From Candidatus Zhuqueibacterota bacterium (GTDB lineage: Bacteria; Zhuqueibacterota; Zhuqueibacteria; Thermofontimicrobiales; Thiofontviventaceae): 64,000 bases of DNA. The translations under genes and the position numbers were made by a program. Of this stretch, positions 13,738-62,607 are shown piece by piece (position 1 is the first letter of the stretch; each line of letters starts with the position of its first letter). The stretch is taken from the NCBI GenBank assembly GCA_036351795.1, contig JAZBPW010000114.1, positions 647 through 64,646 of the forward strand. Direction: 5' to 3'. The notes beneath the pieces are model-generated. The model was not told where the DNA came from. It did not search any database and was given only the letters and a program-made list of their open reading frames with translations.

Positions 13738-15522
13738 ATGCACATCATCGATTTGACAATCATCTTGTTATATGTCGTTGTCGTTGTCATCAGCGGTGTC
13801 GTCCTTTCAAGGCGCGCCGCACAGAACATCGACAGTTATTTTCTCGGCGGAAAGTCCGTGCCCTGGTATCTCCTGGGAATTTCCAATGCCTCTTCCATGT
13901 TCGACATCAGTGGGACTATGTGGCTGGTCTACATGGTCTTCGTCTACGGCATGAAAGGGCTCTGGATGCCGTGGATGTGGCCGACATTCAACCAGGTCTT
14001 CTTCATGATCTACATTGCCATCTGGGTGCGCCGCTCCGGCGTGCTCACCGGCGCCGAGTGGATCGCCACCAGATTCGGCAAAGGAAGGGGCAGCGAGCTT
14101 TCCAGCCTCAGCGTGACGGTATTCGCACTGGTCTCCGTGATCGGTTTGCTCACATACGCATTTCGTGGTATCGGAAAATTCGCCGCCATATTCTTCCCCT
14201 GGGAGCTATCAGCCAATGTCTATGCCATCATCTTCATGACGATAACGACAATCTATGTATTGCTTGGCGGTATGTACAGTGTTGTGCTGACGGACCTCAT
14301 CCAGTTCATCCTGTTGAGTATCACCTCTATCATCATCGGCATCATCGCTCTGTCCAAGGTATCTCCGGAAGCACTCAAGGCAGCGGTTCCGGAAGGCTGG
14401 CTGGACATGTCATTCGGGTGGCATTTGAATCTCGACTGGTCTGATTTGGTTCCGGCTGTGAACGATCAGATCTCATCCGATGGTTATGGCCTGTTTTTCA
14501 TCTTCTTCTGCATGATCGTTTTCAAGGGCATTCTCAACAGTATGGCGGGGCCGGTTCCGACTTTTGACATGCAGCGCATGCTGGCCGCGAAAACGCCGAA
14601 GGAGGCCGGGCTGATGAACGGCATCGTATCCGTCGCCATCATTCCCAGATGGGTCATGGTACCAGCCGTGGCAACGCTTGCCGTTGTCCATTTCACGCCG
14701 GAGCTGAATGCCATGGGTGGGAATATCGATTTTGAGCTTGTTCTGCCCTACGTGATCAATCGATTCATTCCTGTCGGGGTCATGGGCCTGCTGCTCGCTG
14801 GATTATTGGCCGCGTTTATGTCCACATTCGACTCAACCGTCAACTGTGGCGCGGCCTACATCGTCAACGACATCTATAAAAAATATATCAATCCCAGGGG
14901 AAATGATAAACAGTATGTGATTGCCAGCTACATCGCCTCCATCTCACTGGTCTTATTGGGCATCCTGTTCGGTTTTTTACCCAACAGCATCAATGCGATC
15001 ACAGAATGGATCGTCTTCGGCCTTGCCGGCGGATACACAGCACCGAATATCTTGCGATGGCACTGGTGGCGTTTCAACGGCTATGGTTATTTCTGGGGTA
15101 TGATGAGCGGCGTGATCTTCGCGATATCTTTCGGCATGCTGTTTCCCGACATCTCATCGGTAAACAGTTTCCCCCTCATACTGGCCTTTTCCACTCTTTC
15201 CAGCATAGTCGCCAGTCTGCTCACAAAGCCGGATGATGAGGAGACATTGAAAAAGTTCTACATACAGGTCAAACCGTGGGGCTGGTGGCAGCCGATTTAC
15301 GATAAGGTGGCGCATGAACAACCGGGCCTCAAAAAGAATGCCAACGCTGCCAGGGATCTCACAAATGTTGCGGTGGGCACTGTGTGGAAGCTCTGCTTAA
15401 GGATCATTCCCGTCTTTCTGATCGTATATCGTTTCACATCGATGTGGATCGCCATAGGGATTGCGGTCATTACGACGGTTTATCTCAAAAAGAACTGGTA
15501 TGACAAGCTGGATGAAAATTGA
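13738..15522 (+). CDS. Sodium:solute symporter family (SSF) transporter, second copy
   Basis: 594 aa, polytopic, with an SSF-like N-terminus (SYFLGGKSVPWYLLGIS). Confidence 0.85.
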   Translation: MHIIDLTIILLYVVVVVISGVVLSRRAAQNIDSYFLGGKSVPWYLLGISNASSMFDISGTMWLVYMVFVYGMKGLWMPWMWPTFNQVFFMIYIAIWVRRSGVLTGAEWIATRFGKGRGSELSSLSVTVFALVSVIGLLTYAFRGIGKFAAIFFPWELSANVYAIIFMTITTIYVLLGGMYSVVLTDLIQFILLSITSIIIGIIALSKVSPEALKAAVPEGWLDMSFGWHLNLDWSDLVPAVNDQISSDGYGLFFIFFCMIVFKGILNSMAGPVPTFDMQRMLAAKTPKEAGLMNGIVSVAIIPRWVMVPAVATLAVVHFTPELNAMGGNIDFELVLPYVINRFIPVGVMGLLLAGLLAAFMSTFDSTVNCGAAYIVNDIYKKYINPRGNDKQYVIASYIASISLVLLGILFGFLPNSINAITEWIVFGLAGGYTAPNILRWHWWRFNGYGYFWGMMSGVIFAISFGMLFPDISSVNSFPLILAFSTLSSIVASLLTKPDDEETLKKFYIQVKPWGWWQPIYDKVAHEQPGLKKNANAARDLTNVAVGTVWKLCLRIIPVFLIVYRFTSMWIAIGIAVITTVYLKKNWYDKLDEN

Positions 15523-15618
15523 TGATACGATTCGCGTTACGCCGGACAAAAAACACCTTGCATTTTACTATGAAATCATGTTTATTTACGATATCCGTAT
15601 AAACCAAAGGAGCTACAT

Positions 15619-16866
15619 ATGAGTCATTTTAAAATCAAACACACGGTTGTTGATCGATTTTTGCGATACATTAAATACGACACACAGTCTGCCGAAGAAT
15701 CGGAGACGTATCCCAGCACCATGAAACAGAAGAAGCTGGGCGAATTGCTGGTTAAGGAACTGAAAGATATGGGATTGAAAAGCGTAAAGATGGACAAATA
15801 TGGCTATGTCACTGCCACGCTGCCAGCCAATGTAAAGAAGGATATCCCGGTGATCGGGTTTATCGCGCACATGGATACATCGCCGGATGTTTCCGGGAAA
15901 AATGTGAAGGCTGTGATGCATAAAAATTATCAGGGTGCTGATCTCGTGCTGCCCGCCGACAAATCGCAGGTGATCAGATTCTATGACAATCCTGCTTTGA
16001 AGAAGCAGATGGGAAACGATATCATCACCACGGATGGCACAACGTTGCTCGGGGCTGATAATAAGGCCGGTATCGCAGAGATTTTCGACGCCATGAATTT
16101 CCTCATCACGCATCCTGAAGTGAAGCATGGCAAGATTCGGGTGGCAATTACCCCGGACGAAGAGGTCGGCATGGGGACAAAATATTTCAATGTGAAGTCA
16201 TTCGGCGCAAAATACGCGTATACAATCGACGGTGAGAGCGCCGGTGAGATGGAAAATGAGACCTTTTGCGCGGATAGCGTCGATCTCACTGTGCACGGCC
16301 TGAACGTACATCCCGGCTATGCCAAAGGCAAAATGGTTAACGCTATTAAGATATTATCGGAAATCATATCCAGGCTTCCCAAAGGCCGTTTGTCACCAGA
16401 GACCACGCATAAACGTCAGGGATATGTACATCCGAACAGCATGGAAGGCGGCGTGGAGACAGCCTCGGCAAAATTCCTGATCCGCGATTTCACGGTCGAA
16501 GGCCTGGAGCAGCATGAGGCAACGCTCAAAGAGATATGCGAAAAGGTGATGTCGAAATATCCCAAAGCAAAATATGATTTCGATGTCAAGGAATCATACC
16601 GCAATATGCGCTACGAGCTTGACAAGGTGCCAGAGGTCATCGACAACGCCATGGAGGCAATCCGCAGAAGTGGCATGAAACCAAATCTGGGTATCATCCG
16701 AGGCGGCACGGATGGCGCCATGCTCTCCTATCGCGGTCTTCCGACGCCCAATATCTTCACCGGAGGTCACAATTTTCATTCCAAGCTGGAATGGATCTCC
16801 GTCCAGGACATGAAAAAAGCTGTGGAGGTGATCATCAATCTAGCAGCTATCTGGGCAGAAGATTGA
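15619..16866 (+). CDS. pepT: Peptidase T (tripeptide aminopeptidase, M20B)
   Basis: AAGGAG lies upstream of the ATG. The N-terminus VVDRFLRYIKYDTQS, the blocks GFIAHMDTSPD, LLGADNKAG and ITPDEEVG, and the 415-aa length all fit PepT. Confidence 0.9.
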   Translation: MSHFKIKHTVVDRFLRYIKYDTQSAEESETYPSTMKQKKLGELLVKELKDMGLKSVKMDKYGYVTATLPANVKKDIPVIGFIAHMDTSPDVSGKNVKAVMHKNYQGADLVLPADKSQVIRFYDNPALKKQMGNDIITTDGTTLLGADNKAGIAEIFDAMNFLITHPEVKHGKIRVAITPDEEVGMGTKYFNVKSFGAKYAYTIDGESAGEMENETFCADSVDLTVHGLNVHPGYAKGKMVNAIKILSEIISRLPKGRLSPETTHKRQGYVHPNSMEGGVETASAKFLIRDFTVEGLEQHEATLKEICEKVMSKYPKAKYDFDVKESYRNMRYELDKVPEVIDNAMEAIRRSGMKPNLGIIRGGTDGAMLSYRGLPTPNIFTGGHNFHSKLEWISVQDMKKAVEVIINLAAIWAED

Positions 16867-16897
16867 TACACAGCAGGACAAGATCTTGTGTATTTTA
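16866..16897 (+). terminator. Weak intrinsic terminator candidate after pepT
   Basis: AT-rich 7-bp stem ATACACA(16866-16872)/TGTGTAT(16887-16893) followed by TTT. Confidence 0.35.
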
Positions 16898-17072
16898 TCT
16901 GAATGCATCGGTGAGGCATGAGCGATAAATTTAGAGATCATCTTCATCGGTGAATATATACAACCCGCTACAATGGGAATATGATGAATACAATAAATGA
17001 TGGTTGATCGAATTGTTGTAGAAACATGATGAATCCTTTCATACGAATATTACAAATTATTATTTTGGGCAA

Positions 17073-17774
17073 ATGATGAAAACAATCGGATTAATCGGGG
17101 GCATGAGCTGGGAATCCACTGTCAGCTATTACAAGGCCATCAACGAAGGAGTAAAGGCACGTCTTGGTGGCCTTCATTCAGCCAAAATTTGCATGGTTAG
17201 TGTTGATTTTCATGAGATTGAAATCATGCAGCATCGAGGCGACTGGGACGCGACTTCTAATATTCTGGTCAAAGCCGCGCGTTCTGTCGAAGCCGGTGGC
17301 GCAGATTTTCTACTCATATGCACCAATACCATGCATAAAGTGGCGCCACAGATAGAAGCAGCCGTCACTATCCCGGTGCTGCATATTGCCGATGCCACGG
17401 CCGAAAAATTAAAAACAGACGGCATCAGTCGCGTTGGACTGCTCGGCACCAGATTCACCATGGAACAGGAATTTTACAAAGACAGAATAAAAGATAAATT
17501 CGACATCGATGTTTTGATCCCGAATGATCAGGAACGCGATATCATTCACAGCATCATCTATGACGAACTCTGTCTTGGAAAGATAGAGAGTGAATCCCGT
17601 GAACAGTATATCGGGATCATCGAAGCGTTGCATGCAAAGGGCGCGCAGGCAGTGATACTCGGCTGTACCGAAATCGCGCTGCTTGTTCAACAGGAGCATA
17701 CCGAAGTGTCATTGTACGACACAGCTGCCATTCATGCCGCAGCCGCAGTCGACATGTCATTAATTCATGAGTAA
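17073..17774 (+). CDS. Aspartate/glutamate-racemase-family amino-acid racemase (YgeA-like)
   Basis: MKTIGLIGGMSWESTVSYY N-terminus plus the LICTNTMH and ILGCTE cysteine blocks of the Asp/Glu racemase superfamily. 233 aa. Confidence 0.85.
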   Translation: MMKTIGLIGGMSWESTVSYYKAINEGVKARLGGLHSAKICMVSVDFHEIEIMQHRGDWDATSNILVKAARSVEAGGADFLLICTNTMHKVAPQIEAAVTIPVLHIADATAEKLKTDGISRVGLLGTRFTMEQEFYKDRIKDKFDIDVLIPNDQERDIIHSIIYDELCLGKIESESREQYIGIIEALHAKGAQAVILGCTEIALLVQQEHTEVSLYDTAAIHAAAAVDMSLIHE

Positions 17775-17831
17775 CCACGGTCAGCTTTTTTATCCACTCA
17801 ATCGGTCCTACAAGACAATAAAAAAAAATGC

Positions 17832-17859
17832 TTGACTTTTACAAAAAATGTATTATATT
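17832..17859 (+). promoter_or_regulatory. Sigma-70-like promoter candidate for the ATP-grasp/KamA operon
   Basis: TTGACT (17832-17837), a 16-nt spacer, then TATATT (17854-17859). An A-tract lies upstream. Confidence 0.35.
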
Positions 17860-17943
17860 CAGTCGCTTTCCAATCACATTTCAATCAGCATCATATTCAT
17901 GTGATGAGGCAATTTCGATTGAATCTCAACTAAGGAATTAGAA

Positions 17944-18267
17944 ATGATTAAAGAGACTGATGGCAGATTCCGCCCGCCAAATAAAAATGAATTCGAGGAT
18001 GAGGATGACAAACCCCCATCCATAGCACTTTCGGATCAGACGAATCCGCTCCCCTCTGATGCAGGGATATGTTCTCTGACCCCGCGTGACAGTTCCCTGG
18101 ATATATGCTCAAACGGTTTAGCACGCACTTTTCTGAGACCCGTCAAAGATTATCCGAGCAATTTTCTGATGCAATTTTTACAGCAGGTGAATTTAAGAAA
18201 TAGTCCATTCGATACCGATATGAAATATTGTATCGTTGATGTGACTGCTGTAAATGAGCCAAATTAA
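17944..18267 (+). CDS. Small (107 aa) acidic, Pro/Ser/Asp-rich protein; first gene of the ATP-grasp operon (candidate substrate/precursor or accessory protein)
   Basis: AAGGA (17932-17936) lies 7 nt before the ATG. The stop falls 13 nt before the SD-led start of the next gene. I recognise no homology, so coding status is uncertain. Confidence 0.4.
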   Translation: MIKETDGRFRPPNKNEFEDEDDKPPSIALSDQTNPLPSDAGICSLTPRDSSLDICSNGLARTFLRPVKDYPSNFLMQFLQQVNLRNSPFDTDMKYCIVDVTAVNEPN

Positions 18268-18280
18268 CCGGAGGCTCACA

Positions 18281-19351
18281 ATGGGAAAAAGCACCGGATT
18301 AAAGCTCAAAATAGCTTTTGTGTACACCTCCAAAGGAGGTATACTTACAATGCTGAAGAAAAATGGCTTAATAGAATTATTCGATGAGGATGACGAACCT
18401 CCACCCGACCTTTTAGCTGAATGTGATTCTGACGAAACCATTCAAGCAATTAAAAACGTAATTCAAGAACGCTATACGGTGTTACCAGTAGAATCGGATG
18501 AGTACGCTTTCGATGTTCTTCGGGATTCAAAACCGGATCTGGTGTTCAATATCGCCGAACGTCTAACAGGCCCAAACCGCGAATCTCACATACCGACATT
18601 ATGCGAAATGCTGCATATTCCGTACACCGGTTCCGATCCTCTCACCCTTGGCATTTGTCTTGTCAAATCCCGTGCGAAAGAAATCTTATCCTACCATGGA
18701 ATCGCAAATCCCGAATTCCATGCTGTGGATAATACCGAAGGGATTCCACCAGACATTGAGCTTCCTGCCATTATCAAGCCACTTTACGAGGGATCCAGCA
18801 AAGGCATCAGGGACAATTCGGTAGTCCGTACACGTGAGGAGCTCAAAGAGCGTGTTAATGAGATCACTGCTATTTACCAGCAACCAGTTATCATTGAACA
18901 ATTTCTCAATGGCCGGGAATTCACAGTCGGCGTGCTCGGTAATTACCCGAATATTGAAATTTTACCAATTGTTGAAATCGATCATTCGAGCCTTCCTGAC
19001 AACGCCAATCCAATATATTCATATGAAGCGAAATGGATTTGGGACACAACTGACAAGCCGCTACGCATTTTCACATGTCCGGCAAAATTATCGAACAAAT
19101 TGCGTGATCAGATCGAAAAACTCGTTATCAGGACATGCCGGATACTTAATATCAAAGATTGGGCAAGGATCGATGTGCGGCTGGATGATAAAGGCACACC
19201 CAATATTATCGAAGTGAATCCTTTACCCGGCATTTTGCCAAGAGAAGAAGAAAATTCATGCCTGCCCAAAGCAGCCCGCACGGCGGGATATAGTTACTCT
19301 CAGCTGATTCATCGCGTGATCGATGAGACATTTCTTCGCTATGGTGGATGA
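18281..19351 (+). CDS. D-Ala-D-Ala-ligase-family ATP-grasp ligase, paralogue 1 (not the housekeeping Ddl)
   Basis: GGAGG (18270-18274) lies 6 nt before the ATG at 18281. Ddl-like blocks are KIAFVY.., RESHIPTLCEMLHIPYTGSDPL and ARIDVRLDDKGTPNIIEVNPLPG. Confidence 0.85.
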   Translation: MGKSTGLKLKIAFVYTSKGGILTMLKKNGLIELFDEDDEPPPDLLAECDSDETIQAIKNVIQERYTVLPVESDEYAFDVLRDSKPDLVFNIAERLTGPNRESHIPTLCEMLHIPYTGSDPLTLGICLVKSRAKEILSYHGIANPEFHAVDNTEGIPPDIELPAIIKPLYEGSSKGIRDNSVVRTREELKERVNEITAIYQQPVIIEQFLNGREFTVGVLGNYPNIEILPIVEIDHSSLPDNANPIYSYEAKWIWDTTDKPLRIFTCPAKLSNKLRDQIEKLVIRTCRILNIKDWARIDVRLDDKGTPNIIEVNPLPGILPREEENSCLPKAARTAGYSYSQLIHRVIDETFLRYGG

Positions 19352-19352
19352 A

Positions 19353-20366
19353 ATGCCTGATTCAGAAATACATGCAGGTATTGCCTACAATGTTCACGAA
19401 TCCCGGATAAGCGGTTCGGATGAATCGTTATCCGAGAGTTCAGTAGTTCAGGCAGCGCACGATGTATCGGGTGCTTTACGCAATGCCGGTTACAATCCAA
19501 CCCTCGTACCACTCAGGAAGAGTCTGCCCGGTTTCATGGATCGTCTGAAATCGCATGGTTTTGACATCATCATTAATCTGTGTGAAGGGTTCCGGGGAAA
19601 ACCACAGTGGGAGTTCACCATTGCAGGGCTATTTGAAATGGAAGGTATTCCTTTCACCGGCAACAAAGCAGATTCTCTTTTATTATGTCAGGATAAGTTC
19701 AAGACCAAGGCGATTCTTTCTGCTTCAGGACTATCAACACCTCCTTATATATTGATGTCGAATCCTGACCAGTCAATCGAACTTGCATTTCCGCTGATTG
19801 TGAAGCCAAACAATGAAGACGCGAGCCTTGGGATATATTCTGATTCGGTGGTGTGGAATAAAGATGCACTTCGCCGCCAAGCAGGGAAAATAATTCGGAA
19901 ATACAATCAGCCCGCACTCGTTGAATCATTCGTAAAAGGGCGCGAATTCAATGTCGCGGTGCGCGACCTGGGTACACCCCATACGCTGCCTATTTCCGAA
20001 ATCGATTTCTCTGATATGCCGGGCGATGTTCCCCATATCTGTGGATATGAGGCAAAATGGTTTGAAAATCACATATTATACAACGCTTCGAAGCCTGTCT
20101 GCCCCGCACGCGTACCAGCGTCACTTAGGAAAACGCTTCAGAAAGCCGCAATTGATGCATTCAGGGCCGTGGGATGTCGGGATTATGCCCGTGTCGATTT
20201 TCGCGTCGATGATGCAGGAGAAGCCTATATACTCGAGGTCAATCCGAATCCTGACATCAGCCTGAATGCCGGTTATGCGAGAGCGTTGGCTGCCGCGAGT
20301 ATTCGTTATGAAATATTCTGGCATGAGCTCATCCAGCACGCTCTGCAGCGAAAGTTAGATTTATGA
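19353..20366 (+). CDS. D-Ala-D-Ala-ligase-family ATP-grasp ligase, paralogue 2
   Basis: The frame is open from 19323. The ATG at 19353 sits 1 nt after the upstream TGA and is preceded by GGTGGA. Ddl-like blocks are GIPFTGNKADSLLLCQDK and ARVDFRVDDAGEAYILEVNPNPD. The start is ambiguous among 19323, 19341 and 19353. Confidence 0.8.
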   Translation: MPDSEIHAGIAYNVHESRISGSDESLSESSVVQAAHDVSGALRNAGYNPTLVPLRKSLPGFMDRLKSHGFDIIINLCEGFRGKPQWEFTIAGLFEMEGIPFTGNKADSLLLCQDKFKTKAILSASGLSTPPYILMSNPDQSIELAFPLIVKPNNEDASLGIYSDSVVWNKDALRRQAGKIIRKYNQPALVESFVKGREFNVAVRDLGTPHTLPISEIDFSDMPGDVPHICGYEAKWFENHILYNASKPVCPARVPASLRKTLQKAAIDAFRAVGCRDYARVDFRVDDAGEAYILEVNPNPDISLNAGYARALAAASIRYEIFWHELIQHALQRKLDL

Positions 20367-20833
20367 TACGTAAAATGAACAAAAACGATAAAGCGGCTGT
20401 GATGACTCTTATTCGTGAAACAGATGTTTTCACGCAACCCGAAGTGACTGTCGCCGAAGAGCTCATCGATCGATATCTCGATTCACCGAATCAAAAAGAT
20501 TATCTGATTGTGGTTATAGAAGAAAACAATACTGTCGCCGGCTATCTCTGCTACGGCCCGACTGACCTGACAGAAGGCACTTATGATCTCTACTGGATGG
20601 CAGTGCATCCTGATTTCCAGGGTCGTGGACTTGGGAAAAAGCTTGTGGAATGGCTGGTGAATGCGATTGAAAACGAAAATGGACGTCTCATCATCATTGA
20701 AACGTCATCTCAACATAAATACGAAGCAACCCGCCTCTTTTACGCGCGCTCGGGATGCGAAGAGGTCGCGAGAATCCCTGACTTTTACAAAGTCGGTGAT
20801 GACCGTGTCATTTATATAAAAAAAATCAAATAA
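20363..20833 (+). CDS. GNAT-family N-acetyltransferase
   Basis: ATGA start/stop overlap with the upstream gene. Acetyl-CoA motif FQGRGLGKKL. 156 aa. Confidence 0.85.
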   Translation: MIRKMNKNDKAAVMTLIRETDVFTQPEVTVAEELIDRYLDSPNQKDYLIVVIEENNTVAGYLCYGPTDLTEGTYDLYWMAVHPDFQGRGLGKKLVEWLVNAIENENGRLIIIETSSQHKYEATRLFYARSGCEEVARIPDFYKVGDDRVIYIKKIK

Positions 20834-20849
20834 GAGGTTAAAATCAATC

Positions 20850-21956
20850 ATGGAATCCTGGAAACATTTGCTCAGGGAGAGCCTGTCAAGCCCTGAAGCA
20901 ATTGCACATCGTTTTAATCTTCCACTGGAAGATGTTAGAAAAATAAACAGTAAATTTAAAATAAAAATTACACCCTATTACGCCAATCTAATCAAAGAGA
21001 AGGGTGATCCGTTATACAGACAGATGGTTCCCGATATCGCCGAACTGGACACGACGCATGGTAAACTAGATCCACTGGCAGAGGATAAAGATTCTCCCGT
21101 GCCGGGTATTGTCCATCGTTACCCGGATCGTGCTCTTTTTCTGGTTTCTGCTGAATGTGCCTCTTACTGCAGATTCTGTACGCGCAAACGGAAAGTCGGT
21201 AATCACGACAAAATTCGCGCTTCCGATATCGACACAGGGATAGAGTATATCCGAAACCATCATGAGATCCGTGACATTATTATCTCCGGAGGTGATCCAC
21301 TCATGCTGAGTGATGAACGCCTTGAATCAATATTGAAAAAACTTCGTGGCATTCCGCATATCGAAATACTGCGCATCGGCTCCAGAGTGCCTTGCGTTCT
21401 TCCTCAACGCGTAACGCCTGACTTGGTTGACATGTTGAAAAAATATCACCCTCTGTTCATGAACGTACATTTCAATCACCCGGACGAAATCACAGACGAA
21501 TCGAGCCGTGCCTTAAATTTGTTATCCGACGCGGGCATACCATTGGGTAACCAGTCGGTCTTATTGAAAGGCGTGAACGATGATCCCGAGACCATGAAAC
21601 GACTGATGCAAAAGCTGTTGAAGGCACGGGTCCGCCCATACTATATTTATCAGGCAGATATCGTTTTGGGCACTGAACATTTCCGTACAAGAGTCGAAAA
21701 GGGTCTTGAAATCATTAAAGCGATTCGTGGCTGGACATCCGGACTTGCCGTTCCTCAATTCGTTATCGACGCACCCGGGGGTGGCGGCAAGATACCGCTG
21801 CTCCCCGAGTATGTCCTTTTTATATCCGACAGCTGCGTCATGATGCGTAACTATGAAGGAAATGTATACACGTACTCGCAACCGTCCATTAGTAACGGAG
21901 ATGAGTACACGCCGGTACGTCAGGTTGATGAGATCGAGTTGTACGACTCCAACTGA
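20850..21956 (+). CDS. kamA: Lysine 2,3-aminomutase family radical-SAM/PLP enzyme
   Basis: CASYCRFC (CxxxCxxC) cluster, SGGDPL, and the PGGGGK PLP-lysine block. Both Asp residues that bind the lysine epsilon-amino group in Clostridium KamA are conserved (YQAD, VIDAPGGGGK). At 368 aa it is shorter than clostridial KamA. Confidence 0.88.
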   Translation: MESWKHLLRESLSSPEAIAHRFNLPLEDVRKINSKFKIKITPYYANLIKEKGDPLYRQMVPDIAELDTTHGKLDPLAEDKDSPVPGIVHRYPDRALFLVSAECASYCRFCTRKRKVGNHDKIRASDIDTGIEYIRNHHEIRDIIISGGDPLMLSDERLESILKKLRGIPHIEILRIGSRVPCVLPQRVTPDLVDMLKKYHPLFMNVHFNHPDEITDESSRALNLLSDAGIPLGNQSVLLKGVNDDPETMKRLMQKLLKARVRPYYIYQADIVLGTEHFRTRVEKGLEIIKAIRGWTSGLAVPQFVIDAPGGGGKIPLLPEYVLFISDSCVMMRNYEGNVYTYSQPSISNGDEYTPVRQVDEIELYDSN

Positions 21957-22257
21957 AACTTCTTCAAACCGAAATAGTATACTTTTCAAGTAATGTGTTT
22001 CCAATTACCTTTGGTTTGGCACTGGAATACAATACAGACATGAAATCGTTTGGACATTTATCGAGATCTCAGGTCTCGTTGGTGGAGATGATTCCAGGGG
22101 ACTCGGAGATGATTGGATATTTCCCTTTAGTCCGGCAGTCGCTGGTGGTTTTAATACAATTCTAACTTGCCCGGATACGCAATTCCACAACTGATACTTT
22201 TCAGCTGATCATTCTATTTTATATTGAGAATTTCTTGACACCGAGGAAAACACTGAC

Positions 22258-23178
22258 ATGAAACTTGACGATCTTGTAAAAAATCTATCCGATTATTCAG
22301 TAGTATTGGCTCCAGACATGAATTCACCCGAATGGTGGGCGGGAGCGCCATCCGCATGTCTTTCGGACGACGGTGGCATATATCTCGCAGCCCGTATGCG
22401 TGAGGGCGACTCTCCCCGGGGAATGCGTGGCTATGAGTTGCGCATCCTCAAGAGCAGCGACGGGCAACACTTCGATGCCATCCATCAAATTCACCGTGAA
22501 GATGCCGGCCTCTCAGGATTCGAAAGACCGGCTCTGGTGAAGGATCCTGTTTCAGGCATGTATCGTCTTTATGGCTGTACTGCAACGGAGACCGGATGGG
22601 CAATCCTGAAATTCAGAGATGAAAAGGATCCGGCAGATTTCGATGCCAAAAGCGCGAAGATCGTTCTTTCAGCCACCTCGATAAATGAGCCCTTCATCCA
22701 CATCGGTGGATATAAAGATCCGGTTCTTTACCATGACGGAGAGGAATGGCATATGTACGTCATCGCCTATGATGCACTCGAACGCATTCGTCATTTCAGC
22801 AGCCAGTATGGTTCCTCATGGCGCGCTTCTTCGGAAAACCCGGTGATGGAGAACAACGGCTGGCACAATTGCTACACGCGGCCCGCTGCCATATTGCCGG
22901 TTCCCGCCGGATACCTCTTCATTTATGAGGGATCCAATGTCAACTGGCGCGATCCGGCGTACAATATCGCCACCGGACTGGCATTTTCTCCTGATCTGAA
23001 TTCTGTTATCGATCTCACTCCACATCAACCGCTGCTGAAGAGCACAACCCCCGGAGATTATCATACCTGGCGCTATTCACAGTGGGTCTATTACAAAAAC
23101 AAGGTCTTTGTCTACTTCGAAGCGGCCCGGCCCAACAACAGCAATGAACTGAGGGTTGCTGTCATCGACATGCCTTAA
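22258..23178 (+). CDS. Hypothetical cytoplasmic protein, beta-propeller glycosidase-like
   Basis: 306 aa with no signal peptide. Blocks such as GGIYLAARMREGD and YRLYGC suggest a five-bladed-propeller-like fold. Function unknown. Confidence 0.55.
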   Translation: MKLDDLVKNLSDYSVVLAPDMNSPEWWAGAPSACLSDDGGIYLAARMREGDSPRGMRGYELRILKSSDGQHFDAIHQIHREDAGLSGFERPALVKDPVSGMYRLYGCTATETGWAILKFRDEKDPADFDAKSAKIVLSATSINEPFIHIGGYKDPVLYHDGEEWHMYVIAYDALERIRHFSSQYGSSWRASSENPVMENNGWHNCYTRPAAILPVPAGYLFIYEGSNVNWRDPAYNIATGLAFSPDLNSVIDLTPHQPLLKSTTPGDYHTWRYSQWVYYKNKVFVYFEAARPNNSNELRVAVIDMP

Positions 23179-23238
23179 CATCATCAAATTGACATGCAAT
23201 CTTTGTGGTTCCGAATCTTTTTCGATGATCCGCCGTAG

Positions 23239-24954
23239 ATGAAGTTGTCAGCACAAAGGATCATCATGAAACGACGCATAGTTGAACATTCCCTGCTCAT
23301 ACTATTAGCGCTGGTATTTACCATCGGCCTCACTTTCGCTTCTGTGGAACTTCCCAGGGTTTTCGATGCATATATCCATAACCAGTTCAGCTTCCCTGAT
23401 ATAGCGACGATATCGAGTCAACACATCGAACCGGATACTTACAATGAAAGCGCATTCAGGACAGAACTCTTTCTGAGACATTATCATTTTCGGGAAATCG
23501 GATATATCTGTCTGCTTCTCATAATCGCATTGATCATCGCAGGATTCGTCACAGAGAAGATCGGATACACAACCGCCGGCGCCGTCGCACTCTTTCTGCC
23601 TGTATTCGGTCATTTCGCCCTGACCATGTTCTTCCTTGGCGGTCTGGGTTTTCTCCGGCTGCTGTGGATGCCTTTACTGGATATATCAGAAAACCTGCTG
23701 CGACTGGGAGACATCATCGTATATCCCTACCAATGGATCCTGAACGGGGCATCCTTCATTGGTTTGAATATATGGCGGGAGTTACCCTACATCTTCATTG
23801 GTATCGGCTTCCTGCTGTTCACCATGGGGACATTGACTTGGTTTTACGGCAAGATTAAAAAACAACCCATCACAGACTTCTGGATCTATCGCTTTTCACG
23901 TCATCCGCAGTATCTTGGCTGGATCATCTGGAGTTATGGCGTTCTGTTTCTTCCCGGTTCGCGTATCAAAAAAATGTTCGAGATATCGAATACGCTGCCA
24001 TGGCTTCTGGCAACGATGGTCATCATCGGAGTCGCTCTTGTGGAAGAATTGAAACTGAAACGAACACACGGGAAATCGTATGCATTATATCAAAAAAGCG
24101 TCCCTTTTATTTTCCCGCTACCCGGCTTTGTTAAAAAGATATTCTCTTTGCCGACGCGTCTGCTTTTCAAAAAGTCGTTTCCCGGGGAAAAGCTGGAAAT
24201 AGTGGCAGTGCTGTGCATTTTCACCATAGTCATCATGGGGATGTCTTTCGCAAACACCAGAATATCCGAAATGCGACAGCATTCTCAAATACCGGACACT
24301 GAGTATGAAATCTCGGACTATGAATATCAATTCATCTACAATTCCGACCGAAGGACGAAGTATCATGCAGCCATGGCACTTGTGAACGCCGGAAAGCCGT
24401 CCGAGGAAATTTTCATTCGGCTACTGAAAAGTGAGGATGAAGTTGAGAGAGAATTTTCCGCCCAGGCATTGGGCAAATTGAAATCGAAAAAAGCGATACC
24501 TCCACTGACCGCCACTCTGCAGGATCCAAACTGGCGTGTACGCAATACAGCCATTGTCGCATTACAGGGAATCAATCCGGTGGCTGTAAAAACAGAGTTG
24601 ATCAGCGCATTCAATGATGAAAACGGCTCATGTCGTTATCATGCCGCAAGAGCACTTGAAAAGATCGGCACTGAAGATGTGATCGATGTTCTTGTTTCAG
24701 GTTTACAGGATGAGGCACAATATGTTCGCGTTGCCTGCGTCAATTCGCTGGCATTCATTTCATCGGCGAAAACCGTGCCCCCCCTAATCAGTGCGTTGAA
24801 TCAGGAATCCGCCGATGTCCGCCGCGCTGCGGTTCTGGCATTGATCCTCAAAGGATCAAAGGACGCAATAGCGTCATTACAGCTGCTTCATGACGATCCC
24901 GACTGGGAGGTGCGACTATACGCCGCGGAGGCGATCAAGATGCTACGACATTAA
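23239..24954 (+). CDS. Polytopic ICMT/PEMT-like methyltransferase fused to C-terminal HEAT (PBS-lyase-type) repeats
   Basis: YRFSRHPQYLGWIIW and VEELKLKRTHGKSYALYQKSVPFIFP match the isoprenylcysteine/phospholipid methyltransferase signature. The C-terminal ~200 aa carry repeated DxxWxVRxxAAxAL units. The start may be 23266. Confidence 0.7.
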   Translation: MKLSAQRIIMKRRIVEHSLLILLALVFTIGLTFASVELPRVFDAYIHNQFSFPDIATISSQHIEPDTYNESAFRTELFLRHYHFREIGYICLLLIIALIIAGFVTEKIGYTTAGAVALFLPVFGHFALTMFFLGGLGFLRLLWMPLLDISENLLRLGDIIVYPYQWILNGASFIGLNIWRELPYIFIGIGFLLFTMGTLTWFYGKIKKQPITDFWIYRFSRHPQYLGWIIWSYGVLFLPGSRIKKMFEISNTLPWLLATMVIIGVALVEELKLKRTHGKSYALYQKSVPFIFPLPGFVKKIFSLPTRLLFKKSFPGEKLEIVAVLCIFTIVIMGMSFANTRISEMRQHSQIPDTEYEISDYEYQFIYNSDRRTKYHAAMALVNAGKPSEEIFIRLLKSEDEVEREFSAQALGKLKSKKAIPPLTATLQDPNWRVRNTAIVALQGINPVAVKTELISAFNDENGSCRYHAARALEKIGTEDVIDVLVSGLQDEAQYVRVACVNSLAFISSAKTVPPLISALNQESADVRRAAVLALILKGSKDAIASLQLLHDDPDWEVRLYAAEAIKMLRH

Positions 24955-61503: not shown

Positions 61504-62607
61504 TCACATACTATAGCTTGTCGCCAGCGCTTTCTCCCGCTCATGCCTTTCGATGGCAAGCTGAATGAGCCTGTCGATCAATTCGGTATAGGAAATCCCG
61601 CTTGCGTCCCACAATTTCGGGTACATGCTTATCTTCGTAAATCCGGGTATTGTATTGATCTCATTCACGATAACATTGTTTTCTTCAGTGAGGAAAAAAT
61701 CGACTCTCGCCATCCCTTCGCAGCAGAGTACTGTGAAAGCGCGTAGTGCAAGGTTCTGGATCAATACAACCAGCTCATCACTCAGTTTTGCAGGTATTTG
61801 CAGTGTGGCGCCCTTCTCATCGATATATTTTGCTTCGTATGAATAAAATTCATGTTGCGGCATCACTTCCCCGGGCACAGAGGCGATCGGATTCTGATTT
61901 CCGAGCACCGAGCACTCAATTTCCCTGCCTGCGATGCTTTCTTCGATCAAAATTTTGGTGTCGAAACGGAACGCTTCATTCACCGCATCTTCAAATTCGG
62001 CAGCCGATTTCACTTTGCTGATACCAACCGATGAACCCAGGTTTGCCGGTTTGACGAACAGCGGAGTACCAAGCATTCCCGTAACATCCTCGTAATCGAT
62101 AACTGACTTTTCCGAATATCTGTATGCGAGAAAATTGGCGATCGGGAGCCCTGCATCACGCAGAAGCCTTTTCATCACATCCTTGTCCATTCCGACGGCA
62201 GAGCCGAGCACGCCGGCACCTACAAAGGGTATATCCGTTAATTTCAACAGCCCCTGAACAGTGCCATCTTCGCCATACGTCCCGTGGAGTACCGGAAAGA
62301 TGACATCGATTCCGCACTCCGGCTTCCCATTTGTCACATTGATCAGGCGATCCTCCCTGTCCCCCTGTATCAATGCGATCTCTTCCGTGGATCTGGACAG
62401 CTTCACGAGCTTCGGATTATCCGCATTCAGGAGAAAACGGGATGCATCATTGAGGTACCATTTCCCGCTTTTATCGATCCCGATCAGCACGATCTCGTAT
62501 TTTCCCTTATCGATGGCTTCCACGACATTTTTCGCGGATTGCAAAGAGACTTCATGTTCAGCAGATTTTCCCCCGAATAGTATACCGACTCTGATCTTGT
62601 CAGTCAT
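61504..62607 (-). CDS. ddl: D-alanine--D-alanine ligase (housekeeping)
   Basis: IRVGILFGGKSAEHEVSLQSA, HGTYGEDGTVQGLL, and ARVDFFLTEENNVIVNEINTIPGFT. 367 aa. Confidence 0.9.
   Translation of the reverse strand: MTDKIRVGILFGGKSAEHEVSLQSAKNVVEAIDKGKYEIVLIGIDKSGKWYLNDASRFLLNADNPKLVKLSRSTEEIALIQGDREDRLINVTNGKPECGIDVIFPVLHGTYGEDGTVQGLLKLTDIPFVGAGVLGSAVGMDKDVMKRLLRDAGLPIANFLAYRYSEKSVIDYEDVTGMLGTPLFVKPANLGSSVGISKVKSAAEFEDAVNEAFRFDTKILIEESIAGREIECSVLGNQNPIASVPGEVMPQHEFYSYEAKYIDEKGATLQIPAKLSDELVVLIQNLALRAFTVLCCEGMARVDFFLTEENNVIVNEINTIPGFTKISMYPKLWDASGISYTELIDRLIQLAIERHEREKALATSYSM

Follow-up and report, generated by a model that had tools for sequence, protein, structure and literature searches.

A candidate beta-lysine amide cassette of a lysine 2,3-aminomutase, two Ddl-like ATP-grasp ligases and a GNAT in a Candidatus Zhuqueibacterota bacterium

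In methanogens and some bacteria, AblA and AblB make N-epsilon-acetyl-beta-lysine, using a lysine 2,3-aminomutase (LAM) and a GNAT N-acetyltransferase. During beta-lysylation of elongation factor P (EF-P) by EpmA, EpmB and EpmC, the beta-lysine that becomes amide-bonded to an amine comes from a KamA-family aminomutase. N-acetylglutaminylglutamine amide (NAGGN), produced by Ngg and AsnO, is an N-acetylated small-peptide primary metabolite whose synthesis combines GNAT and ATP-grasp activities. Here we describe an operon uniting these enzyme types on contig JAZBPW010000114.1 of a Candidatus Zhuqueibacterota bacterium, within an analysed stretch of 64,000 nucleotides (the window). With moderate confidence we read positions 18281-21956 as a self-contained four-enzyme cassette for a small beta-lysine-derived amide. 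It is highly probable that the four enzymes, a lysine 2,3-aminomutase (KamA), two Ddl-like ATP-grasp ligases (AG1 and AG2) and a GNAT, form a conserved, uncharacterised beta-lysine-linked cassette to which the small protein encoded in front of them does not belong.

A preliminary description of this DNA had announced five closely spaced genes on one strand, and all five were found on the + strand: a 107-aa open reading frame (ORF; 17944-18267), AG1 (18281-19351), AG2 (19353-20366), GNAT (20363-20833) and KamA (20850-21956). The junctions measure +13, +1, -4 and +16 nt as claimed, the GNAT start overlapping the AG2 stop in an ATGA, and 301 nt separate KamA from the next ORF at 22258. Pfam and NCBIfam searches returned the proposed enzyme types, namely two ATP-grasp proteins with a Dala_Dala_lig_C domain (PF07478), a GNAT and a radical SAM/PLP (S-adenosylmethionine/pyridoxal phosphate) protein of the KamA family.

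AG1 has thousands of relatives at 65-70% identity. With each GTDB species represented by a single genome, a relative was detected in at least 589 of these species-level genomes. Among the matches listed, these genomes are mostly Aminicenantes; further labels are Acidobacteria, Ignavibacteriales, Caldithrix, Wallbacteria, Bacteroidota, Thermodesulfobacteriota and Syntrophaceae. By tblastn, AG1 and AG2 were detected in 84 of 84 related loci (a few of the AG2 matches being cross-hits onto AG1), the GNAT in 75 and KamA in 71. The four genes were co-linear as AG1-AG2-GNAT-KamA in about 70 of these 84 genome loci, covering several phyla, and the order was the same where the genes were present. Most long metagenome loci showed this order as well, the loci with called genes agreed, and AG2 followed AG1 in nearly all loci extending far enough. 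Between phyla, AG1 and KamA retain 65-74% identity. In cultured Desulfovibrio-type bacteria (reached via the GNAT relative 2R7H; among them D. mangrovi, Oceanidesulfovibrio indonesiensis and an Oleidesulfovibrio-type contig) the order is sigma-54 activator, KamA, ATP-grasp, ATP-grasp, GNAT, and in D. mangrovi a TGGCAT-N5-TTGCT motif lies about 110 nt 5' of KamA. That the gene set is kept across different orders and phyla strongly indicates that the four enzymes constitute one functional module, and the gene-neighbourhood search for which the preliminary description had called came out in favour of co-conservation. There are also minimal pairs that consist of KamA and AG1 alone, with neither AG2 nor GNAT, e.g., lepA-lepB-KamA-AG1-HU in locus L115.

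The preliminary description had further held that no described system combines these enzymes, and we found none in the literature searched, the PDB giving one putative name only. Apart from the generic KamA model, no NCBIfam family was matched above its cut-off by the cassette proteins. The nearest literature topics were ablAB in Pelobacter, sigma-54 regulons and copper stress in strain G20, none of which describes the cluster. The enzyme families are known; what appears undescribed is that they occur together, how widely they do so and that polyamine genes can be coupled in as an alternative.

KamA passed the cut-off of the KamA-family hidden Markov model (HMM; TIGR00238) with 312.7 bits against 199.2. 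Its best-scoring model was the AblA equivalog (TIGR03820), on which 482.8 bits place it just below the cut-off of 525.4, followed by the glutamate-type (429 bits) and arginine-type (357 bits) models and by EpmB, on which it reached 252.5 bits against a cut-off of 369.3. Comparison with the LAM of C. subterminale (PDB 2A5H) gave 419 bits over 343 residues, with CxxxCxxC, R134, D293, D330 and the PLP lysine K337 of 2A5H all kept. In LAM, Asp293 and Asp330 bind the epsilon-ammonium group of lysine, and both are replaced in glutamate 2,3-aminomutase. As all lysine-specific residues of 2A5H are retained and AblA/LAM is the best model, the sequence identifies KamA as a lysine-type 2,3-aminomutase, in agreement with the first assignment. 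Its predicted activity would make it the source of beta-lysine.

AG1 scored 124 bits on PF07478 and 178 bits on the Ddl subfamily HMM, and AG2 98 and 141 bits, respectively, against a Ddl cut-off of 243 bits. Both proteins fall below all Ddl/Van cut-offs, and the equivalog models score far lower still. AG1 and AG2 share 36% identity over 259 aa, compared with 20-26% between either of them and Ddl enzymes; they are paralogues, and each is nearer to its partner than to the Ddl enzymes. An AlphaFold2 (AF2) model of AG1 was obtained with a predicted local distance difference test score (pLDDT) of 84 and a predicted template modelling (TM) score of 0.85, and its best Foldseek matches were Ddl enzymes (TM 0.7-0.8, 20-26% identity). 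For AG2 the three-domain Ddl fold is predicted from the sequence. The best solved sequence relatives of both proteins are all Ddl or VanA, and the top Pfam, PDB and, for AG1, Foldseek matches are all Ddl; RimK appeared merely as a sub-threshold 16-bit match of AG2. AG1 additionally contains a conserved acidic N-terminal insert (EDDEPPPDLLAECDSDE).

To compare the active sites, residues of E. coli DdlB were mapped onto 132 AG1 and 84 AG2 sequences; of the DdlB reference, positions 70-303 matched the retrieved sequence. K97, K144, E180, E187, K215, R255, D257, E270 and N272 are invariant in both ligases, with E270 replaced by Asp in two Desulfovibrio AG2 sequences. Tyr216 is Trp in both. Ser150 is kept in AG1 as Ser or Thr and is Ala in AG2 (Gly in a few sequences), Gly276 is kept in AG1 and Asp in AG2, Ser281 is kept in AG1 and Ala in AG2, and Leu282 is Cys in AG1 and Gly in AG2. 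His63 corresponds to Glu in AG1; in AG2 its counterpart depends on the alignment and was not used. Cysteines 48, 108, 126, 266 and 327 of AG1 are invariant in a 24-sequence AG1 alignment, C327 occupying the Leu282 position. In DdlB, Gly276, Ser281 and Leu282 hold the carboxylate of the second D-Ala. By analogy, the nucleophile used by AG1 probably retains a nearby carboxylate and that used by AG2 probably has no adjacent carboxylate, and the new Asp of AG2 (G276D) suggests a cationic partner.

Since the catalytic residues are kept, the pocket is changed and the scores lie far below the Ddl/Van cut-offs, AG1 and AG2 are predicted to be active ligases other than D-Ala-D-Ala ligases. The preliminary description had likewise set them apart from the cell-wall enzyme, and the non-Ddl pockets, the sub-cut-off Ddl scores and a separate canonical ddl in the window all agree with this. 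That ddl lies at 61504-62607 as had been indicated, but on the minus strand, and has its GGKSAEHEVS and YEAKY motifs intact. Placement of AG1 and AG2 inside Ddl/Van with D-Ala specificity residues, which the preliminary description had regarded as damaging to its proposal, was not observed, given Y216W in both proteins and S150A, G276D, S281A and L282G in AG2. A role in the cell envelope, with AG1 and AG2 acting as alternative D-Ala-D-X ligases or adding a diamine or beta-lysine to peptidoglycan precursors, would suit the Ddl fold of AG1, the preference of both ligases for Ddl HMMs and the Asp/Glu racemase-family gene immediately 5' of the operon in the window. Diamines linked to peptidoglycan are also known in some anaerobes. 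The distance from the Ddl cut-offs, the altered specificity residues and the canonical ddl speak against such a role, as does the genomic context, in which the racemase adjoins the cassette in 0 of 84 loci and no mur or pbp genes recur nearby; we consider it very improbable.

The GNAT contains Acetyltransf_1/7 domains and the acetyl-CoA motif QGRGLGK. Its best NCBIfam match was rimI, below the cut-off, and no AblB model was among its NCBIfam matches. Over its full length it matched PDB 2R7H with 120 bits, a structural-genomics entry with a putative name only. From these matches the GNAT is assigned to the 2R7H family, RimI-like and not AblB-like, which weakens the direct analogy to ablAB that an AblB-like enzyme would have provided. 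2R7H probably corresponds to Dde_3044 of O. alaskensis G20. Dde_3047 is a SpoIIE-type phosphatase whose position in PMC8836040 agrees with the locus map. Two of the Desulfovibrio loci (L086:9629-11386 and L089:7250-9004) also encode a 585-aa fusion of a GNAT to a protein of the HDAC/acetylpolyamine-amidohydrolase family (254 bits), which suggests an acetylation/deacetylation cycle on an amine.

A second genetic wiring of the ligases emerged from context clustering, in which AG1-AG2 stood behind a pyruvoyl arginine decarboxylase (ArgDC), an arginase-family agmatinase and a deoxyhypusine-synthase (DS)-family gene, followed by a class-I SAM methyltransferase (MT) and with no KamA. A metagenome scan using an ArgDC-type AG1 variant showed this arrangement to be recurrent, and in total 28 loci join AG1-AG2 to these genes through overlapping or tight junctions. 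About 22 loci read (DS)-agmatinase-ArgDC-AG1-AG2-MT and five read DS-ArgDC-c24-AG1-AG2-GNAT(-MT), where c24 denotes a third gene, ATP-grasp-like but divergent, whose product of about 311 aa has the motif KPSEGGGGEGV and weak Pfam matches only. The c24 gene is attached to three KamA-type loci, after KamA, and to five ArgDC-type loci, and is absent from the window; examples are L003:4747-5703, L058:9697-10632, L062:9627-10562 and L071:5009-5914. By type, 105 loci carried KamA, 28 ArgDC, none both, and 32 neither, the last being mostly short contigs. The GNAT accompanied KamA in 98 of the 105 KamA-type loci; the methyltransferase accompanied ArgDC in 21 of 28 loci and KamA in none. Each supply module thus has its own amine-capping enzyme, acetyl in the KamA type and methyl in the ArgDC type. 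Beta-lysine (3,6-diaminohexanoate) is putrescine bearing a carboxymethyl group, and therefore both modules deliver a 1,4-diaminobutane skeleton. The alternative wiring places the cassette in diamine/polyamine-type chemistry.

Taken together, the following pathway is proposed for the window. KamA would convert L-lysine to beta-lysine, and AG1 and AG2 would each form one amide bond via an acyl-phosphate. AG1 would be the enzyme directly coupled to beta-lysine, with a nucleophile that keeps its nearby carboxylate, and AG2 would acylate an amine lacking an adjacent carboxylate and probably bearing a distal positive charge, e.g., the second amino group of a diamine skeleton. These specific substrate roles are tentative. 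The GNAT would N-acetylate a free amine that remains, the acetyl group serving to cap it or to protect it transiently. Elsewhere among bacteria, ArgDC, agmatinase and methyltransferase take the place of KamA and GNAT beside these two ligases. The product is most likely an N-acetylated beta-lysine amide or pseudo-polyamine. Owing to the polyamine-type wiring and the kinship of beta-lysine and putrescine, the cassette is best read as a diamine-acylating pathway with an N-capped pseudo-peptide or pseudo-polyamine as product. A generalized form of this reading, in which AG1-AG2 represent a new, widespread class of diamine-acylating ligase pairs that build N-capped pseudo-polyamines or pseudo-peptides on beta-lysine (KamA) or on agmatine/putrescine (ArgDC), is a speculative possibility.

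Several observations weigh against this pathway. The substrate assignments of AG1 and AG2 are drawn by analogy with E. coli DdlB residues, and the mapping of DdlB E15 in both ligases and of H63 in AG2 varies with the alignment method, so these positions were not relied on. The pocket of the Desulfovibrio subtype differs (W216A/E and C282D in AG1; D276C in AG2), and its product may differ from that of the other cassettes. The 107-aa ORF in front of AG1 does carry coding signal and a ribosome-binding site and may have a strain-specific role. Between KamA-type and ArgDC-type loci, AG1 has no differing fixed column and AG2 a single conservative one (A/S), which one would not expect of ligases with two distinct scaffolds as substrates. 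This sameness can be read in three ways. The ligases would recognise only the shared aminobutyl motif, which the mutual exclusion of the two modules within loci favours; or all hosts would make one product that needs both building blocks, beta-lysine and agmatine/putrescine, with operons linking different supply genes, which the invariant AG1 carboxylate site and the KamA-AG1 pairs favour; or neither building block may be a direct substrate of the ligases.

Alternatively, the target of AG1-AG2 may be a housekeeping protein that would receive a new modification of the beta-lysyl or aminobutyl type, e.g., a beta-lysyl group in the case of EF-P or a ribosomal protein, with the ligases replacing EpmA and the GNAT acting like RimI. 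KamA-type (EpmB) and deoxyhypusine-synthase enzymes are, to our knowledge, the two known routes to a modified Lys in EF-P/IF5A, and genes of both families are linked to AG1-AG2. The nearest named family of the GNAT is rimI, and the identity of AG1 and KamA between phyla is unusually high, and the two genes lie amid housekeeping genes such as lepA, HU, recG and dnaG. Set against this, a tblastn search with E. coli EF-P, made for efp only and not for epmA, gave no match in the window or in any of 169 loci, and KamA scored 252 bits on EpmB versus 483 on AblA. The nearest relatives of AG1 by structure and of AG2 by sequence are small-molecule Ddl enzymes and not RimK, LysX or TTL, and the DS-family gene comes with ArgDC and agmatinase, which beside such a gene typify polyamine synthesis. 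A protein target is accordingly improbable in our view.

The genomic context of the cassette is largely of the housekeeping kind. The sole widely recurrent neighbour is recG, which in 14 of 37 AG1 lineage groups stands directly 5' of AG1 and in its orientation (loci L068, L072, L077, L078, L080, L083, L084 and L114 among them); other neighbours are dnaG, HU, lepA/lepB, tatAC and queCDE. No recurrent transporter, osmosensor, non-ribosomal peptide synthetase or polyketide synthase (NRPS/PKS), resistance gene, efp or precursor peptide was found near the cassette. Because of this housekeeping context, the strong conservation and the lack of recurrent transporter, NRPS/PKS, resistance or precursor genes, the product is more likely a primary metabolite, such as a compatible solute or polyamine analogue, than an antibiotic or a ribosomally made peptide with post-translational modifications (RiPP). 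In Aminicenantes only, a protein of about 280 aa with an internal repeat and no Pfam match is encoded just 5' of AG1 (L001:6958-7809, L002:6981-7784 and about 20 other loci).

The preliminary description had also considered a strict compatible-solute pathway that would extend ablAB or parallel the NAGGN route and yield a di- or tripeptide osmolyte containing N-acetyl-beta-lysine. Consistent with it, AblA is the model on which KamA reaches its highest score (482.8 bits), KamA and the GNAT are conserved together in 98 of 105 loci, and an operon without export, resistance or regulator genes fits a cytoplasmic solute. The RimI/2R7H-like GNAT without an AblB match, the lack of an osmolyte transporter or mechanosensitive-channel gene recurring beside the cassette and the existence of polyamine-type variants without KamA are harder to reconcile with a dedicated osmolyte pathway, which we regard as rather unlikely.

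The 107-aa protein has no Pfam or NCBIfam match, and tblastn found no homologue in any of the 84 related loci. A single 99%-identical copy (P0121) was present among 5.8 billion proteins, and a HMMER scan of 1.84 billion representatives returned the same single match. The closest non-identical operon relative (L170, with an AG1 70% identical) has no counterpart; an upstream frame in L170 was rejected as a candidate since it is unrelated and of odd composition. Coding potential was assessed with a 3-periodic Markov model trained on 26 other window genes. In frame, the ORF scored +1.34 bits/100 nt, higher than each of 41 spurious ORFs of comparable length, and its five alternative frames gave -5.7 to -26.5; the mean for the held-out operon genes was 1.99. 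Its start is preceded, at a distance of 7 nt, by the ribosome-binding site AAGGA. A single-sequence AF2 prediction reached a pLDDT of 41, which carries little information on the disorder that had been ascribed to the protein. Between L085 and the window the ORF differs by one synonymous and one non-synonymous change, too few for judging selection. Two further origins were discarded: a decayed duplicate of the AG1 5' end, for which only a 10-residue acidic match was seen (E 0.057, not significant), and a leader RNA in 17700-18400, where no credible Rfam family was found and the sole match was a sub-threshold eukaryotic snoRNA model. The 107-aa ORF is probably a real, strain-specific orphan gene on the same transcript; its distribution argues that it is not part of the conserved system, neither substrate nor precursor.

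With its absence from the 84 loci, from the 1.84 billion representatives and from the closest operon relative, the small protein no longer qualifies as the pathway component that had been supposed, and ligation onto it has no comparative support. The microviridin-like layout likewise falls away, since no conserved precursor gene lies beside the ligases and the 107-aa ORF is an orphan absent from related loci. What recommended a RiPP-like product, or ligation onto the 107-aa protein, was the position of the ORF 13 nt 5' of AG1, its ribosome-binding site and coding-like score, and the resemblance of its acidic stretch to the AG1 N-terminal motif. That resemblance is the non-significant one just mentioned, and the ligases are of the Ddl type and not of the MdnB/C type. 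The RiPP reading is largely refuted by the comparative data, and we give it almost no weight. In O. indonesiensis an unrelated 112-aa ORF without Pfam match overlaps the KamA start (L089:3568-3906); the small ORF at the head of the operon can thus differ between lineages without any homology.

A promoter-like TTGACT-16-TATATT element occupies 17832-17859 (+), 85 nt 5' of the 107-aa ORF. The site that had been reported is indeed present, matches 10 of 12 consensus positions and is the joint best sigma-70-like site in 16800-23300, but it is statistically not compelling, as 17 such sites were observed in this region and 12.7 +/- 3.8 were expected from shuffled sequence. The site is well placed, and the evidence for it is positional only. 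Directly 3' of KamA no terminator-like site was found; a weak 5-bp stem lies at 22132-22145. AG1 was taken to start at 18281, where a GGAGG ribosome-binding site precedes it and the N-terminal strand is kept in the family alignment. The NCBI call begins at 18350 (333 aa) and removes the conserved N-terminal strand KIAFVYTSK, for which reason 18281 is the better start. Exact-protein look-ups of the window AG1 and KamA returned no match because public gene calls use different starts.

Immediately 5' of the operon, 13738-17774 (+) encodes a 594-aa transporter-like membrane protein, an M20 (PepT-like) peptidase and the Asp/Glu racemase-family protein; the transporter-like and peptidase genes, too, adjoin the cassette in 0 of 84 related loci. 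On the 3' side, a 306-aa ORF (22258-23178, +) with a high coding score of 5.9 bits/100 nt lacks Pfam and NCBIfam matches, and other genomes have no homologue of it next to the cassette. It is followed by a 571-aa protein (23239-24954, +) with an unusual fusion of an ICMT/PEMT-like membrane methyltransferase region to C-terminal HEAT/PBS-lyase-type repeats, which is not conserved with the cassette.

The cassette occurs in Aminicenantes, KSB1 and Ignavibacteria, uncultured lineages that are dominant in sediment and soil, as well as in genetically tractable Desulfovibrio. Identification of its product would add a new branch of beta-lysine/polyamine metabolism, give a function to the structural-genomics orphan 2R7H and correct thousands of 'D-alanine--D-alanine ligase' annotations, and the product might explain how these anaerobes meet osmotic or polycation needs. 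The ArgDC/agmatinase wiring provides a concrete, testable substrate hypothesis. If 2R7H is Dde_3044, O. alaskensis G20 (Dde_3041-3044) would be an immediate experimental system. Should the ligase pair prove to be a diamine-acylating class, it would define a new primary-metabolite family in Aminicenantes, KSB1, Ignavibacteria, Bacteroidota and sulfate reducers.

Compared with the described systems, the cassette resembles AblA/AblB in having a LAM/AblA-type aminomutase in an operon with a GNAT and in a product that is probably a cytoplasmic beta-lysine derivative. It differs in its short RimI/2R7H-type GNAT, in its two dedicated ATP-grasp ligases and in a KamA that can be replaced by a polyamine module. 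With EpmABC it has in common a KamA-family aminomutase that would provide the beta-lysine to be joined to an amine as an amide; here, however, KamA is LAM-type, an EpmA paralogue and linkage to efp are missing, and the ligases are ATP-grasp and not aminoacyl-tRNA-synthetase-like enzymes. NAGGN synthesis and other ATP-grasp L-amino-acid ligase pathways share the pairing of GNAT and ATP-grasp activities that leads to an N-acetylated small-peptide primary metabolite. Neither a fused GNAT-ATP-grasp Ngg nor an AsnO-type amidotransferase domain of the NAGGN type was found in the operon, in which GNAT and ligases are separate genes, the two ligases are of the Ddl type and a dedicated gene supplies the beta-amino acid.

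AG1 and AG2 share with DdlB and VanA the three-domain ATP-grasp fold (modelled for AG1, predicted for AG2), all ATP/Mg and catalytic residues and, presumably, the acyl-phosphate mechanism. They are set apart by their 20-26% identity and the exchange of Tyr216 for Trp, AG1 in addition by Glu in place of His63 and by its acidic N-terminal insert, and AG2 by loss of the site for the D-Ala2 carboxylate. From the ArgDC-agmatinase-DS-like (homospermidine-type) polyamine operons the window differs in containing no polyamine genes, and an extension of such operons by ligases is undescribed in the literature searched. The likeness lies in the 28 related loci that co-transcribe AG1-AG2 with these genes and in the shared 1,4-diaminobutane skeleton.

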